Origin: a virus
Taxonomy: Duplodnaviria; Heunggongvirae; Uroviricota; Caudoviricetes
DNA length: 33,113 bases
IMG/VR virus record: IMGVR_UViG_2879770953_000003
Direction: 5' to 3' (one strand)
Below are positions 3,001 through 30,000 of the stretch, in pieces (position 1 is the first letter of the stretch; every line of letters begins with the position of its first letter). Position numbers: made by a program.

Positions 3001-6000
3001 CCTGTTTTCCCTTGCTGGATAAAGATCCCGTCGTTTCCAATCTGCTCCCATTTCAGCGATAACACATCGGAAACCCTCGCTGCACACAGATAGGCAATTT
3101 CCATTGCGATAAAAACAGGAAGAGGTGCAACGCTTAATACTGCCTGGTATTCTTTGTCGGTTACATATCGTTCGCGGTTTTTGGCCTTGAATTTACTTAC
3201 ACCTGCACATGGGTTAGCCTTCACGTGAGGTAGCCTGAGTTTAACGGACACTCCTTCCTGAAATAGAATGGCATCAGAAGGAGCTAATAATGAGCAGAAA
3301 AACCCAACGTTACTCTAAAGAGTTCAAAGCCGAAGCTGTCAGAACGGTTCTTGAAAATCAACTTTCGATCAGTGAAGGCGCTTCCCGATTATCCCTTCCT
3401 GAAGGCACTTTAGGACAATGGGTTACCGCCGCCAGAAAAGGGCTCGGTACTCCTGGTTCCCGCACGGTGGCTGAACTGGAATCTGAAATTCTGCAACTGC
3501 GTAAGGCGTTAAATGAAGCTCGCCTTGAGCGAGATATATTAAAAAAAGCAACAGCGTATTTTGCACAGGAGTCGCTGAAAAATACGCGTTAATCGAACAA
3601 TGGCGACAACAATTTCCCATTGAAGCGATGTGTCAGGTATTTGGTGTATCCAGGAGCGGTTATTACAACTGGGTACAGCATGAACCCTCAGACAGAAAAC
3701 AAAGTGATGAGCGGCTAAAACTGGAGATTAGGGTGGCACATATCCGCACTCGCGAAACATATGGAACCCGGCGGCTCCAGACGGAGCTGGCAGAGAATGG
3801 CATCATCGTTGGTCGTGACCGACTGGCACGTCTTCGTAAGGAGCTGAGGCTACGCTGTAAGCAGAAACGCAAGTTCAGAGCGACTACGAACCCGAACCAC
3901 AATCTGCCAGTTGCGCCAAATCTGCTGAACCAGACGTTCGCTCCTACAGCACCAAATCAGGTCTGGGTGGCGGACCTGACGTATGTTGCCACACAGGAGG
4001 GATGGTTGTACCTCGCTGGCATCAAAGATGTTTATACGTGCGAAATTGTCGGCTACGCCATGGGAGAGCGCATGACAAAAGAGCTGACAGGTAAAGCCCT
4101 GTTTATGGCGCTCAGGAGCCAGCGCCCACCTGCCGGGCTAATCCACCACTCTGATCGAGGTTCACAGTACTGCGCATACGATTACCGGGTCATACAGGAG
4201 CAGTTTGGTCTGAAAACATCAATGTCGCGTAAAGGTAACTGTTACGACAACGCTCCGATGGAAAGCTTCTGGGGAACGCTGAAAAATGAGAGCCTGAGCC
4301 ACTATCGTTTTAATAACCGGGATGAAGCCATCTCAGTAATACGGGAATACATTGAGATTTTCTACAATCGTCAGCGTCGTCACTCTCGTCTGGGGAATAT
4401 CTCCCCGGCAGCCTTCAGGGAAAAATATCATCAGATGGCTGCTTAAAAAAAGAACAAATGGTAGTGTCCGCTATTGCCAGTACACCTCAACGTACCCTCG
4501 CTCATACCCCCAACTGTAAACGCGGGACATACTGCTTTTTTCATGGTTGGCTTGCGTTTTACTCTGTTCCCCTCTCTTGTCCATGTATCGACGGATGTGT
4601 TCTGGTTTTATGGAATCTGCCGGCACCTTACCGAATACGGCAAGCAACTTTTTTTGATGTTGCAGATAATCTTTTTGTGTTCTTGGACTGAGGTCACTGT
4701 AATAGGCGCTGGCGAGGAATTTTTCCCACAAGCGACCGAATGTCATTGCACGATCGCGATTATTTACAGTTTCCTCATACTTTTTCCATAAAGCAGCTAA
4801 ACCATCCTTGATGGCGGTTAGTGTTACAGATTCTCTGGATGTTGGTTTCCATACATAACTATATTTATTTGGGTATACATTTGGAGGTAATTTTTCGTGT
4901 TCAGGATTTTTCCTTCGTCTTCCCATCAGATCGCACCAAAATTCGGCTCTACCTCGTGTGGTGGTAAAGTTTTATTGCAGGTAAATAGCTCCCGGCTGAC
5001 AATCGGTTTGCCACTACGATTGGTATAGAACGGAAGCCCGTTTTCCATTAACCATTTTCGCTGGTGGCTTGCATATTTGCAGCCCGTTAATATTAGCAAT
5101 TCATCTTCGGTTAAAAATAAGCTGCTCATAGCTATATCTCATAACCGCCGCTAACTATATACGGTTAGCGGCAATTAGGGTTGAACATTAAAAATCAGCC
5201 TGACTCGGGATCAGTTTTTGCCAGATAGCTGAAACGTATTTTGCCTGGTAACGAGCGTCATCAAGTGCATTATGGCGCTCACCTTCGAATGGAATAGCCG
5301 TTCTGGCATCGAAGTCTATGGCTTTCCCCAGCTCAACGATTGTGCGTACATCGCGATCGTTGTAGTAACGCCACGGGCAGGGGATCCCCTGCCGTTCGTA
5401 TGAACGGCGCAAAATCGTGTTGTCGAAGTTGGCTCCATTTCCCCAGACCTGAACAAAAAATTCACCGGAGTTTTCGTCGATAAATTCCCGCAATTGTAAC
5501 AGTGCATCATCTAACGGGTAATGACTCCAACTTACTGATAGTGTTTTATGTTCAGATAATGCCCGATGACCTTGTCATGCAGCTCCACCGATTTTGAGAA
5601 CGACAGTGACTTCCGTCCCAGCCTTGCCAGATGTTGTCTCAGATTCAGATTATGTCGCTCAATGCGCTGAGTGTAACGCTTGCTGATAACGTGCAGCTTT
5701 CCCTTCAGGCGTGATTCATACAGCGGCCAGCCATCCGTCATCCATACCACGACCTCAAAGGCCGACAGCAGGCTCAGAAGACGCTCCAGTGTGGCCAGAG
5801 TGCGTTCACCGAAGACGTGCGCCACAACCGTCCTCCGTATCCTGTCATACGCGTAAAACAGCCAGCGCTGACGTGATTTAGCACCGACGTAGCCCCAATG
5901 TTCGTCCATTTCAGCGCAGACAATCACATCACTGCCCGGTTGTATGCGCGAGGTTACCGACTGCGGCCTGAGTTTTTTAAGTGACGTAAAACCGTGTTGA

Positions 6001-27000: not shown

Positions 27001-30000
27001 TCTGCCACCAAATCGCAGAAAAAAGTGCTCCGCTCGTTGCGCATTAGCCCGAAAAAACTGGCGGCGGATATGCAGAAAGACGCCCGCGGGGCCATGCTGC
27101 ACGTACTGGATTCTCTGGCAAAAGTGCCGAAAGAAAAACAGGCTGCTGTGCTGAAAGCGCTGTTCGGGAAGGAATCCCTGGGGGCCATTGCGCCGCTGCT
27201 CACGAATCTGGATTTGTTGCGAACCAACTTTAATCGTGTGGCGGATGCGCAGCAGTATGGCGGCTCAATGCAGAAAGAATATGCCGCCCGTGCCGCGACG
27301 ACAGAAAATCAGTTGTTGCTGCTGCAGAACCAGATCAATGCGATTTCTTCCACGCTGGGGGAAACCTTCCTGCCTTCACTCAATGAAGGCATAAAAGAGA
27401 TGAAGCCTTTTCTGGAAGAAGTGCGCACGTTTGTCAGAGAAAATCCTGAGGTCGTAAAAACCATCGCGAAAACTGGTGCGGCATTACTGACGATGGGCGT
27501 GGCGATTGGCACATTGACACGCATAACAAAAATCATGGGTAGCGTGATGAATATGACGCCGGCAAAGGGATTAATTGCGCTTCTCGTCGGTGGTGCATAT
27601 CTCATAATTGATAACTGGGAAACGGTCGGTCCGGTTGTGAAAAAAGTCTGGCAGGAGGTTGATCAGGTTGTCAGAGCAATGGGGGGATGGGAACAGGCAG
27701 TAAAAACAATAGCAACGGTTTCTGCCCTGTATATTGGTGTGAAGGCGGTGGCAAGTATTCGTGCGGCAACAGTCGCCCAGAATCAATGGACAACGGCGGC
27801 AGGAAAAACAGGGCTGAAATTAAAGGGCCTCGGAAAGATCAGTCTGATTGGTGGATTGCTTGAACTGGGCATGATGGCGCAGGAGTTTGAAAAAGAACAT
27901 CCCTGGCTTGTTAAAAATTTTGTGGCTGATGCACTGAACAGTGGATTTGGTCTGAATGATAAGTTCGACGAGTGGGGCAAACAGTTCCATGATTTTGTCT
28001 ATGACATGACCGGATGGCAGATGCCACGTGGTGATGGGTATTTATCTCCCGATAAACGCTACACCCCGAATGTATCACTGGAAAGGAATCAGCTGTTAAG
28101 CCTTGCATCTTCACCGGCAACCCGCAGCGAACTTAAGGTGACGTTTGACAACGCGCCGCCTGGAATGCGCGTTATCGATTTGCCGAAAACAGGCGATCCC
28201 TTTATGAAAATCACCCATGATGTTGGGTATTCTCCATTTAAAAGGTGAGTTCTTTTTTTGTGGTGAAAGATGAGGCAAAATTATCGCGTAACATGCTAAC
28301 AATGGAGTTTGTTTTGTGGGTAATGCTGCCAACTTACTGATTTAGTGTATGATGGTGATTTTAAGGTGCTTGCGTGGCTTCCATTTCCATCAGATGTCCT
28401 TCCTGCTCCGCTACTGAAGGCGTGGTGCGTAACGGCAAAAGCACTGCCGGACATCAGCGCTATCTCTGCTCTCATTGCCGTAAAACATGGCAACTACAGT
28501 TCACTTACACCGCCTCTCAGCCCGGTACGCACCAGAAAATCATTGATATGGCCATGAATGGCGTCGGATGTCGCGCCAGTGCACGCATTATGGGCGTTGG
28601 CCTCAACACGGTTTTACGTCACTTAAAAAACTCAGGCCGCAGTCGGTAACCTCGCGCATACAACCGGGCAGTGATGTGATTGTCTGCGCTGAAATGGACG
28701 AACATTGGGGCTACGTCGGTGCTAAATCACGTCAGCGCTGGCTGTTTTACGCGTATGACAGGATACGGAGGACGGTTGTGGCGCACGTCTTCGGTGAACG
28801 CACTCTGGCCACACTGGAGCGTCTTCTGAGCCTGCTGTCGGTCTTTGAGGTCGTGGTATGGATGACGGATGGCTGGCCGCTGTATGAATCACGCCTGAAG
28901 GGAAAGCTGCACGTTATCAGCAAGCGTTACACTCAGCGCATTGAGCGACATAATCTGAATCTGAGACAACATCTGGCAAGGCTGGGACGGAAGTCACTGT
29001 CGTTCTCAAAATCGGTGGAGCTGCATGACAAGGTCATCGGGCATTATCTGAACATAAAACACTATCAGTAAGTTGGAGTCATTACCTACAGAATCGTGGC
29101 GAGCTCTGTCCGCAACAGATGGGGAGACCCTGACATTGGCGGGCTGATTATTGCTGCGTACCAGGGAGAAGCTGACGGTGATAAAGTCATCAGACTTGTC
29201 AGGGGCAGTCATACAGAGGCTCACGACTGGGACCGGTGGGGATTTCAGTGCCCAGTACTCCCACCGGAACGTATATAGCATCCCCACAATTTTTCATTAC
29301 GGGATGTTCAGAGCATTCATTACCGGGGTCATATTGCGCCCTGTCCGGGGTGCCGGATGCACATGTCTCTGGCGCAATGCCCGGGCTTTTTATTCGCACA
29401 TCGTGAGGAATGCACCGTGGAAATTAAAAAAATCATTAATCCCCGTTATACCGAAAGTGGCGCAGTAGACTGTGACGTTTTTTTTGACGACAGGGACCAG
29501 GCAGTCCCCTACACAGCCACCGCTGATGATGTCGCACCGACGGGTCAGCAAATCTGGCAGGAACTGCAAAGTGGCAAATGGGGTGAGATAGCACCATTCA
29601 CTGTGACACCAGAAATGCTGGAAGCGGCCAGAGAGGCCAGACGTCAGGAAATTGAAGCATGGCGCACAGAACAGGAGGCGAAGCCGTTCACGTTTGCATG
29701 GAACGGTCGCACGTGGAACGCTGACTCCTCGTCAGTGGCCCGCCTGTCCCCGGTGGTCATGCTGGCAAAATCTGTCGCGGCACAAACACATATGGTGTGG
29801 AGTGATGCGGATAATCAGCAGGTGAAACTGTCGATGCCGGAACTGGAAGAACTGGCGGCAGCAATGGTGCAGGCGCAGGTCGATCGCAACGATGAGATTT
29901 ATCGCCGTCAGCGTGAAATGAAAGAGGAGCTGAGCAGTCTGGATGATTTGGCTTCAATTCGGGCGTTTGACGTTGAGTAATGAATAAGCCGCAACTGGCG

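Follow-up and report, generated by a model that had tools for sequence, protein, structure and literature searches.

Deletion of DNA adjoining an IS1 element is a classical activity of that element. Reif and Saedler reportedly described such IS1-promoted deletions in 1975, beside IS1 in the gal region of E. coli. Jin et al. are said to have described in 2002 the 'ipaH islands' of S. flexneri 2a 301, where chromosomal ipaH genes lie in prophage remnants. The loss of target duplications through adjacent deletion or through recombination between IS copies is documented (PMC11708052), and classes of ipaH genes have been defined (PMC9046306). IS1 is the commonest IS in Shigella, with 42-59% of mapped insertions (Hawkey et al. 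2020, PMC7373316). That study and Seferbekova et al. 2021 (PMC8072062) followed genome-wide how IS elements have expanded in Shigella and driven the decay of its genomes, whereas we deal here with one prophage. IS1-driven decay of prophages in Shigella is an ordinary and already known phenomenon. To our knowledge, which is not exhaustive, the deletion series of the present prophage is not described in Hawkey et al. 2020 or Seferbekova et al. 2021.

The window (the whole stretch analysed, 33,113 nucleotides of IMG/VR record IMGVR_UViG_2879770953_000003) holds a phiP27-like prophage. Its head is of the HK97 type, its tail is contractile and Mu-like, and its right end bears an ipaH effector gene. 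In phiP27 (NC_003356.1), an Stx2e-converting phage, the block running from HNH through cos, terminase, portal, protease, capsid, sheath and tube to tape measure is collinear with that of the window at 87-97% nucleotide identity. phiP27 covers 70% of window positions 14333-28318 at 94.7% identity, and window blocks 16148-16567 and 18868-28238 align to phiP27 21394-33563. Both have a DUF4376 fibre-end gene at the right end. phiP27 differs in having stx2e, another early region and another attachment site; the window has ipaH rather than stx2e, is integrated at serU and is missing the early and baseplate modules.

A relative with intact modules is the serU prophage of E. coli FDAARGOS_944 (NZ_CP065613.1, 622.6-666.2 kb; hereafter L005). 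This is the same prophage, integrated at the same site, and its right end likewise has ipaHe and the methyltransferase. Unlike the window it has both modules and no IS1, carries two ISEc60 insertions and a frameshifted ipaHe, and lacks the window's IS600 and IS66 insertions as well as its 161-bp protease-capsid deletion. The window shares with the ipaH islands of Shigella an intact chromosomal ipaH at the end of a degraded prophage, with paralogues elsewhere amid prophage genes and pseudogenes. We see no difference of kind; what is added here is the exact end points of the deletions and their order.

Two IS1-bounded deletions

A repeat finder run on the window returned two inverted arms of 768 nt each, 22,034 nt apart: IS1 A (5517-6284, minus strand) and IS1 B (28319-29086, plus strand). 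Compared directly, they differ by a single mismatch (99.87% identity) at position 524 of copy B (window 28842), where GCC (Ala) in A is GTC (Val) in B. Members of the IS1 family are recognised by a length of about 768 bp and imperfect terminal inverted repeats of about 23 bp starting GGTAATG. Both copies are 768 bp long with the ends GGTAATGACTCCAACTTACTGAT and GGTAATGCTGCCAACTTACTGAT, the IS1-type termini reading GGTAATGACTCC... and GGTAATGCTGCC..., and both contain insA and insB' ORFs with the IS1-specific Pfam domains Zn_ribbon_InsA (E-value 5.9e-20), HTH_Tnp_IS1 (4.9e-30) and DDE_Tnp_IS1 (2.1e-73). In copy B the A6C programmed-frameshift motif AAAAAAC lies at 28625-28631.

The flanks of IS1 A are CATCTAACG on the left and AGGGCGGTA on the right; those of IS1 B are TGTTTTGTG and TACAGAATC. 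We compared 15-nt flanks as direct repeats, as reverse complements (for an inversion) and outer with outer (for a composite transposon). Neither IS1 has a target duplication of 8-10 bp (usually 9), its left and right 15-nt flanks matching directly over 3 nt at most, and no pairing of the four 15-nt flanks shares more than 3 nt, so that there is no signature of inversion or of a composite transposon among them. As an internal control, all three other IS elements of the window retain their target duplications: ACG at IS600 #1, CTC at IS600 #2 and TCATTACG at an ISSfl3-like IS66 element. A previous sequence-only reading had described a near-identical inverted IS1 pair, neither copy having a 9-bp duplication, with flanks unlike those of a simple inversion. 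Each of these points holds; moreover, the core is on the same strand as the outer flanks in L005.

The window and L005 are collinear on one strand and 99.7-99.9% identical. All four IS1 flanks map to L005 in the same order and on the same strand, the arrangement of deletion junctions, and IS1 is absent from both corresponding places in L005. The flanks of deletion A correspond to L005rc 3436 and 12338, with 8,901 bp missing; those of deletion B correspond to L005rc 33085 and 41384, with 8,298 bp missing. The segment lost at A comprised most of the exonuclease gene together with dicB/ydfABC, RelBE, the repressor/cro pair, the genes for replication and Ea22. The segment lost at B held orf160, the gene for DNA circularisation, those for the baseplate, a fibre gene and the gene for its assembly, and also the 5' part of another fibre gene, the second one. 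Sensitive blastn gave no match to either deleted segment anywhere in the window.

The edges of the deletions are sharp. IS1 A stands in place of the 8,901 bp, and at its left 109 C-terminal codons of the exonuclease remain (5188-5516, minus strand; Pfam Rv2179c-like, profile positions 81-177 of 177) of a gene that is complete, at 2,442 bp, in L005 and in another locus (L004). IS1 B, in place of the 8,298 bp, begins 70 bp past the stop codon (28248) of the tape-measure gene (26299-28248, plus strand; Pfam PhageMin_Tail) and 3 nt into orf160, of which only the GTG start codon remains (28316-28318, plus strand). In phiP27, baseplate and fibre genes stand directly after the tape-measure gene. To the right of IS1 B, positions 29087-29406 (plus strand) are the 3' remnant of the second tail-fibre gene and map to L005rc from 41384. 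Their parent is a gene for a 'prophage tail fiber N-terminal domain' protein (L005 6298-7563); on translation, the reading frame of the remnant is now interrupted by an internal stop. The sequence-only reading had placed IS1 A against a truncated exonuclease where immunity and replication genes would be, and IS1 B against the tape measure where baseplate and fibre genes would follow. The intact relative confirms both placements and, as that reading had proposed, defines the deleted segments. Comparison with relatives brought out no 8-9 bp duplication, and sensitive blastn located no early region elsewhere in the window. At the level of sequence comparison, we show that this prophage has undergone two separate IS1-bounded deletions, independent of each other, whose exact end points and relative order can be given.

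Origin of the deletions

What might have produced these scars? We consider it probable that the window represents a defective serU prophage in an S. flexneri 3a-type chromosome, in which the two IS1 copies are scars of two separate IS1-promoted deletions, the likeliest kind being adjacent deletion. IS1 would insert at or close to one end point. Its transposase would then join one IS1 end to a second target site within that DNA molecule, an intramolecular replicative transposition known as 'adjacent deletion'. The 8-9 kb between would be lost, while IS1 would be kept with one copy of its target duplication gone. As in the classical IS1 adjacent deletions, the IS is kept at the junction, the duplication is lost, several kb are gone on one side and the flanks are collinear with the ancestor. 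Unlike in the classical cases, the events are inferred from comparative genomics, and there are two independent ones in one prophage. The inverted orientation of the two IS1 copies would be incidental.

The same deletions could have arisen by RecA-dependent recombination between two IS1 copies in the same orientation, which we rate as possible but clearly the less likely course. It would require independent insertions at both end points of a deletion and would leave one hybrid IS1 with one flank from each. Its product matches what is observed, without target duplication and with collinear flanks. IS1 is very dense in Shigella (PMC7373316), and other lineages show several independent IS1 insertions in these modules: simple ones in orf160 and in baseplate J of S. 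sonnei-type loci, and two IS1 copies in the early region of one locus (L011). However, an IS1 with the module intact was found at A-left, B-left or B-right in none of the loci surveyed at the junctions, which are the 24 on the longest contigs for each look-up and a small part of the blocks carrying these genes. The second IS1 of L011, L013 and L009 is at a different site and in opposite orientation. Recombination also demands two insertions and one recombination per deletion, versus one insertion and one transposition event. We infer that the transposase-driven pathway operated rather than homologous recombination between IS1 copies. The suggestion of IS1-mediated adjacent deletions made from the sequence thus stands as regards the deletions, which L005 supports; as the specific mechanism, adjacent deletion is only the likelier one, since recombination of IS1 with IS1 yields an identical product.

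It is very improbable that the window is an IS1-core-IS1 composite transposon, or that IS1 recombination between two loci joined a core from another prophage to the outer flanks. Such an origin might be suspected: a lambda-like siphovirus prophage, at mlrA-btsS in FDAARGOS_943, matched the right flank while the core is that of a myovirus, the left flank is 99.8% identical to an E. coli serU prophage to which the DNA right of IS1 A is only 89-94% identical, and the genome has three copies of the right-end module. Yet there is no outer 9-bp duplication (A-left and B-right share 3 nt), and in FDAARGOS_944 the outer flanks and core make up a single, continuous prophage, 99.7-99.9% identical and unchanged in gene order. 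The locus of the S. flexneri 3a genome CP054892.1 lies between its native neighbours, serU/mtfA on one side and zinT on the other. With an identity of only about 90.7% to the missing DNA, the paralogous fibre module of the mlrA-btsS locus is not the translocated piece. These data contradict the proposal.

An inversion of the 22-kb core between the IS1 copies, homologous or duplicative, might explain mismatched target duplications and is mechanistically possible for inverted copies 99.87% identical (an IS1-bounded inverted 2.2-kb piece of the same prophage occurs in assemblies L007 and L015), but as the origin of the junctions it is hardly credible, being contradicted by the flanks (3 nt shared between A-left and the reverse complement of B-left, and likewise on the right sides), by the same orientation of core and both outer flanks in L005, and by the 17 kb of missing DNA that inversion alone leaves unaccounted for. 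The core may still be a substrate for RecA-mediated inversion, yet it is native in orientation. The sequence-only reading was right to regard the pair as such a substrate in principle; no inverted isomer was seen in the large assemblies surveyed, the orientation being the same in every contig covered, 24 of them at junction B and 15, of window type, at junction A.

Order of events among lineages

Genomes of S. flexneri serotype 3a match the window, CP054892.1 (strain FDAARGOS_713) at 99.994% identity. Five S. flexneri 2a/1b loci (L006, L010, L012, L014, L042) read ...GCTGGTGG-CAGCATTACC-AGGGCGG: at the window's A-right junction they have an IS1-end relic of 9-13 bp, joined to window position 5068 via TGGC microhomology. 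This relic shows that the 2a/1b loci descend from a window-type state. On such sequence comparison, deletion A came first, before the split of the S. flexneri 3a and 2a/1b lineages. In the 2a/1b genomes orf160 is still there and the tail-module loss has other end points (reference 33643-41799, versus 33086-41383 in the window), so that deletion B is independent and lineage-specific. It is the later event, specific to the 3a lineage, the 2a lineage having lost its tail module independently.

Two loci, L011 and L013, may preserve an earlier stage. Only 10 bp from the A-right junction they have an IS1 oriented like copy A and flanked by a perfect duplication of 9 bp, GCCGCCTGA, and Ea22 and the replication genes are still there. 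This insertion is possibly the progenitor of copy A. To account for the 10-bp offset, the other end of the IS1 must have undergone a second small deletion, or else the insertions at this hot spot were independent. For deletion B, none of the loci surveyed has an IS1 at either end point with the module intact.

If L011/L013 are not progenitors, two independent IS1 events fell within 10 bp at the Ea22/orf138 hairpin, one in the window lineage and one in L011/L013. Three IS1 events fell within about 560 bp at orf160 (3a, 2a and sonnei-type), and the tail module was lost twice with differing end points. One may speculate, with little confidence, that IS1 targeting is non-random here and steers different Shigella lineages to the same outcome, a prophage remnant that can no longer move but retains ipaH. 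Should hot spots be demonstrated, or selection that locks ipaH in place, this would be a reproducible IS-guided domestication of a prophage and not random decay.

The significance is little beyond bookkeeping, and neither a new mechanism nor a new element is revealed. The comparison does tell how one ipaH prophage of S. flexneri was disabled, with no self-regulation, replication, lysis or tail and with ipaH intact. It provides a dated series, from intact in enteroinvasive E. coli through the 3a state to the 2a state, whose steps could be lineage markers. It also accounts for the pieces, about 1 kb and about 14 kb long, into which short-read assemblies fragment here.

The remaining prophage and its right-end module

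The attachment site is serU, a tRNA-Ser (CGA) gene at 2492-2581 (plus strand; ARAGORN, and RefSeq annotation of matching E. coli loci), with mtfA adjoining (1601-2437, minus strand) and tRNA-Asn as neighbour (1425-1500). The integrase (2609-4926, minus strand) is split into pieces 2609-3225 and 4490-4926 by IS600 #1 (3226-4489, plus strand), a simple insertion of 1,264 bp with its 3-bp duplication; this IS600 is not present in two otherwise near-identical loci, L041 and L047. The N-terminal piece has Pfam Phage_int_SAM domains, and the integrase is 99.7-99.8% identical to the uninterrupted one of the serU prophage in FDAARGOS_536 and FDAARGOS_944.

Right of IS1 A, the retained late-early region (6285-11134, plus strand) is 99.4-99.8% identical to L005rc 12338-17160. 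By the annotation of L005 it includes hokD, DUF968, RusA and antiterminator Q among its genes; orf138 (6300-6716), a cluster of four tRNAs (10301-10610; ARAGORN) and a holin (10903-11118) also lie within it. The ISSfl3-like IS66-family element (11135-15155, plus strand), with its 8-bp duplication, sits at the start of the endolysin gene and is itself interrupted by IS600 #2 (13069-14332; 3-bp duplication). The retained late region (15156-28318, plus strand; 94.7-96.6% identical to phiP27 and 99.7-99.9% to L005) comprises a lysis remnant, HNH, small and large terminase subunits, portal, protease-capsid fusion, connectors, sheath (24026-25522, plus strand), tube, tape measure and the orf160 start.

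The right-end cargo module (29357-33113; Pfam and RefSeq neighbours) encodes a DUF4376 protein (29357-29980, plus strand; Pfam DUF4376), an intact ipaH E3 ligase (30160-31803, minus strand), a SAM methyltransferase (32119-32787, minus strand) and a fragment of a tail-fibre-assembly gene (32844-33113, plus strand). The ipaH ORF of 547 aa has the Pfam domains of an IpaH (NEL) effector, NEL (6e-77) and LRR_TTSS (1.5e-07), and its RefSeq homologue is ipaHe.

The DNA right of IS1 B is a module of about 4 kb present in three copies in CP054892.1. With the mlrA-btsS copy the right flank of IS1 B shares 99.95% identity, but with L005 only 98.96%, and in L017-type contigs (13 of the 24 at junction B) the module runs into btsS rather than zinT. 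These identities and contig ends show that recombination among the module copies occurred later, and the three-copy module possibly adds a recombination history of its own at the right side of IS1 B.

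Deletion junctions at the two IS1 copies

The prophage of the window is also found in E. coli FDAARGOS_944 (NZ_CP065613.1), where it sits between serU/mtfA and zinT with all of its modules. The genes there run in the order int, DUF4224, exonuclease, DUF1482, dicB, ydfCBA, relE/relB, two HTH regulators, ydaT, replication organiser, DUF977, DUF4406, Ea22, orf138, hokD, DUF968, rusA, Q, tRNAs, holin, lysozyme, Rz, HNH, terminase, portal, protease, capsid, sheath, tube, tape measure, orf160, DNA circularisation, five baseplate genes, fibre, tfa, second fibre, DUF4376, ipaHe, methyltransferase and tfa'. 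The window begins with tRNA-Asn, mtfA, tRNA-Ser (serU) and a tyrosine integrase gene split by an IS600 copy (IS600 #1), followed by the DUF4224 gene and the last 109 codons of the large exonuclease gene. Between the two IS1 copies lie orf138, hokD, DUF968, rusA, Q, four tRNAs, the holin gene, an IS66 element interrupted by a second IS600 (IS600 #2), HNH, terminase genes, portal, protease-capsid, connectors, sheath, tube and the tape-measure gene. To the right of the second IS1 are the 3' end of a tail-fibre gene (with an internal stop in translation), the DUF4376 gene, an intact ipaH encoding a 547-aa NEL E3 ligase, the methyltransferase gene and a fibre-assembly fragment. Among phages, the Stx2e phage phiP27 is closest to the structural block (94.7% identity over 70% of 14333-28318).

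The window aligns on one strand, at 99.7-99.9%, with the reverse complement of the FDAARGOS_944 locus, which we use as the reference. Window 4490-5516 corresponds to reference 2410-3436, and the match resumes from window 6285 at 12338; further right it runs up to 28318 (reference 33085) and resumes from 29087 (reference 41384). By these breakpoints, IS1 A (5517-6284, minus strand, 768 bp) replaces 8,901 bp and IS1 B (28319-29086, plus strand, 768 bp) replaces 8,298 bp; the reference has no IS1 at either corresponding place. Deletion A took the 5' 2.1 kb of the exonuclease gene and 15 genes, those for immunity and replication among them, while deletion B took everything from orf160 into the second fibre gene, of which the initial 315 codons are gone. 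Alignment thus places both copies at deletion junctions. A sequence-only reading had proposed as much, with immunity and replication genes expected beside the exonuclease remnant and baseplate and fibre genes after the tape-measure end, and the intact relative now delimits both segments. That reading had regarded an intact early region elsewhere in the prophage as evidence against it; both missing segments, searched against the window by sensitive blastn, gave zero matches, so the window has neither an early region nor a baseplate elsewhere. The other finding that it would have taken as a refutation, matching 8-9 bp duplications when the flanks are set beside a related genome, was likewise absent.

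In a repeat search of the window, IS1 A and IS1 B form an inverted repeat with a spacing of 22,034 bp. Both have IS1-type ends, and IS1 B has the insA and insB' frames with three IS1 Pfam domains and the AAAAAAC frameshift site at 28625-28631. A single base separates them, at window 28842, where A encodes Ala and B encodes Val, a non-synonymous change in insB' of IS1 B. The same base is the only mismatch to CP054892.1 across 16.8 kb, and hence the change is private to the strain. IS1 A is flanked by CATCTAACG and AGGGCGGTA, and IS1 B by TGTTTTGTG and TACAGAATC. When 15-nt flanks were compared as direct repeats, as reverse complements (the signature of inversion) and outer to outer (that of a composite transposon), no pairing shared more than 3 nt, which rules out both signatures. 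The first description of the pair, inverted, near-identical and devoid of target duplications, was therefore correct as written. As an internal control, all three other IS elements in the window retain theirs: IS600 #1 (3226-4489) has a 3-bp duplication, ACG; IS600 #2 (13069-14332) has CTC; and the ISSfl3-like IS66-family element that it splits (11135-15155), a few codons into the endolysin gene directly after holin, has the 8-bp TCATTACG.

Possible routes to the deletions

We favour the possibility that each deletion was formed by intramolecular transposition driven by the IS1 transposase, i.e. by adjacent deletion. One insertion and one further event per deletion would suffice, a state near the expected precursor exists in relatives, and adjacent deletion is said, after Reif and Saedler in 1975, to be a classical property of IS1. 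It is also general to replicative IS elements (PMC11708052). The relatives in question (loci L011, L013 and L009) have an IS1 oriented like IS1 A with a perfect 9-bp duplication, GCCGCCTGA, and retain Ea22 and the replication genes. This IS1 (9199-9984 in L011 and L013; reference 12328-12338) lies 10 bp to the left of the right-hand junction of IS1 A, at a small GC-rich hairpin between Ea22 and orf138. This L011-type arrangement comes near to what would be expected of a precursor of IS1 A. The hairpin and orf160 may be IS1 target hot spots, or IS1 A and the L011-type insertion may share descent. Predicted intermediates would have the IS1 IRL end joined to CATCTAACGGGATTTC, GGAGTCATTACC to TGTTTTGTGATAAAGCC and GATATTATTTACAGAATC to GGTAATGCTGCC, or AGGGCGGTA on both sides of IS1.

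A less probable alternative, recombination between two IS1 copies in the same orientation, would yield a product identical to that of adjacent deletion. IS1 is dense in Shigella, where it accounts for 42-59% of mapped IS insertions (PMC7373316), and relatives of the prophage show multiple IS1 insertions in the early and tail modules. In L011, L013 and L009 another IS1, which lacks a duplication, adjoins a separate early-region deletion of 1.8 kb, and in S. sonnei-type loci both orf160 and baseplate J contain simple IS1 insertions that have their duplications. However, a precursor with two IS1 copies at the right positions was not found among the loci read; nor was a single-IS1 precursor for IS1 B. 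Collinearity with FDAARGOS_944 supports the original interpretation of IS1-associated deletions; the adjacent-deletion pathway itself we infer.

A rejected candidate is a chimera of two unrelated prophages joined by IS1. It was suggested by a lambda-like siphovirus prophage at mlrA-btsS (FDAARGOS_943), the earliest match to the right flank, and by FDAARGOS_536, the earliest match to the left, which was only 89-94% identical on the inner side of IS1 A; the chimera was dropped, as FDAARGOS_944 has one continuous prophage.

The locus is a clean case, by now fully delimited, of prophage decay associated with IS1 in S. flexneri. Such decay is already known and common in Shigella, and the locus is present in many sequenced genomes.

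Order of events among lineages

Window 16299-33113 is 99.994% identical to CP054892.1, which is S. flexneri FDAARGOS_713 of serotype 3a; the window-type records LR861785 and LR861788 are likewise 3a (PMC9455713). At junction A, genomes of serotypes 2a/1b (CP012137, CP045941, CP026788, CP034060 and others) read ...GCTGGTGG-CAGCATTACC-AGGGCGG. Here CAGCATTACC is all that is left of the IS1 IRL end, 9-13 bp, exactly at the right-hand junction of IS1 A, fused via TGGC microhomology to window position 5068 in the DUF4224/exonuclease region (window 5063-5068 and 6266-6284; ~9960-9990 in L006, L010, L012 and L014; 4050-4075 in L042). Such a 'ghost' IS1 would be missed by an annotation pipeline. Given the relic, the 2a/1b loci must derive from the window-type state via a further 1.2-kb deletion, and deletion A is therefore older than the 3a-2a split.

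On the tail side, 2a/1b genomes retain orf160; their IS1 lies 558 bp further to the right and is oppositely oriented, and beyond it come an IS600 fragment and then DUF4376 from window position 29502. In reference coordinates, their gap is 33643-41799 versus 33086-41383 in the window. Since each state retains DNA that is missing in the other, the tail module was lost twice, independently. From these comparisons, deletion B is confined to the 3a lineage, and deletions A and B are shown to be independent, A being the earlier. Around orf160, three distinct IS1 positions (3a, 2a and sonnei-type) fall within ~560 bp.

The nested IS66::IS600 #2 insertion is common to the 3a and 2a lineages; in 2a, IS600 #2 also bounds, on the left, a deletion that took 14333-23516 (terminase and head genes). 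IS600 #1 is missing from two closed window-type 3a assemblies (L041 and L047) that have IS1 A and deletion A, so its insertion is recent. Look-up of the integrase-IS600 fusion ORF (151 aa) returned only ~1-kb contigs bounded by IS600 and IS1, and at least 10 short-read contigs of that size contain IS600 #1, which could mark a recent sub-lineage. Window-type left contexts were retrieved via look-up of an IS66 TnpC fragment.

Core orientation and the repeated right end

The first reading had called the pair a substrate for inversion, and 768-bp inverted repeats that are 99.87% identical could plausibly serve as one for RecA. Compared with FDAARGOS_944, the 22-kb core is in its native orientation relative to both flanks. 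No inverted arrangement was seen at junction B, where 24 of 24 large tape-measure contigs read tape measure-IS1-DUF4376, or at junction A, where all 15 window-type contigs read through were collinear; these are consensus assemblies, which minority inversion isomers could escape. In two other loci (L007 and L015, 14193-17948; CP102221.1 and CP102206.1), two IS1 copies enclose an inverted 2.2-kb piece equivalent to window 10510-12752 (the end of the tRNA cluster, holin and part of the IS66 element). These copies share one orientation and have an inverted 9-bp TTCGATTCC at their IRR ends, an arrangement that does not match standard duplicative inversion.

The ~4 kb that start midway through the second fibre gene and end with tfa' (window 29087-33113) have three copies in CP054892.1: one here, one at mlrA-btsS and one in a lambda-like remnant (L049, L051 and L053, from CP054892.1 and relatives). 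The copy in the window shares 99.95% identity with that at mlrA-btsS, 99.75% with the third and only 98.96% with the orthologous module in FDAARGOS_944. In 13 of the 24 tape-measure contigs read (L017-type), the module after IS1 B continues into DinI-IS4-btsS and not zinT (L017 and L052, 16900-21950, versus L016; btsS/btsR of the mlrA-yehU locus). The copies are closer to each other than to FDAARGOS_944, which suggests gene conversion, and recombination or gene conversion has evidently taken place among them. The L017-type ends imply that two ipaH prophage ends ~200 kb apart recombined, with a large rearrangement as the result. Recombination among module copies is not the source of the IS1 junction. 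Relocation of the missing fibre genes to mlrA-btsS was ruled out, since the fibre module there matches the missing DNA at only ~90.7% identity.

A 161-bp deletion relative to phiP27 and FDAARGOS_944, common to all window-type assemblies, lies at window 20923/20924. The prohead protease gene thereby loses its end and the major capsid gene its start, leaving one uninterrupted ORF (20262-22028) for which relatives have a 576-aa call. Inside the antiterminator Q gene, at 9876-9929, there is a 27-bp tandem duplication relative to FDAARGOS_944, GGTGGGGAAGGTTATGAATA[C/T]CAGGTT, whose copies differ at one base; Q is annotated as frameshifted in FDAARGOS_944. Downstream of Q, the four-tRNA cluster (10301-10610) holds the position where stx-phages have ileZ-argN-argO and the toxin genes. 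Its first tRNA is tRNA-Met (CAT) according to ARAGORN, while the orthologue is tRNA-Ile in RefSeq; the last three are Lys, Thr and Gly.
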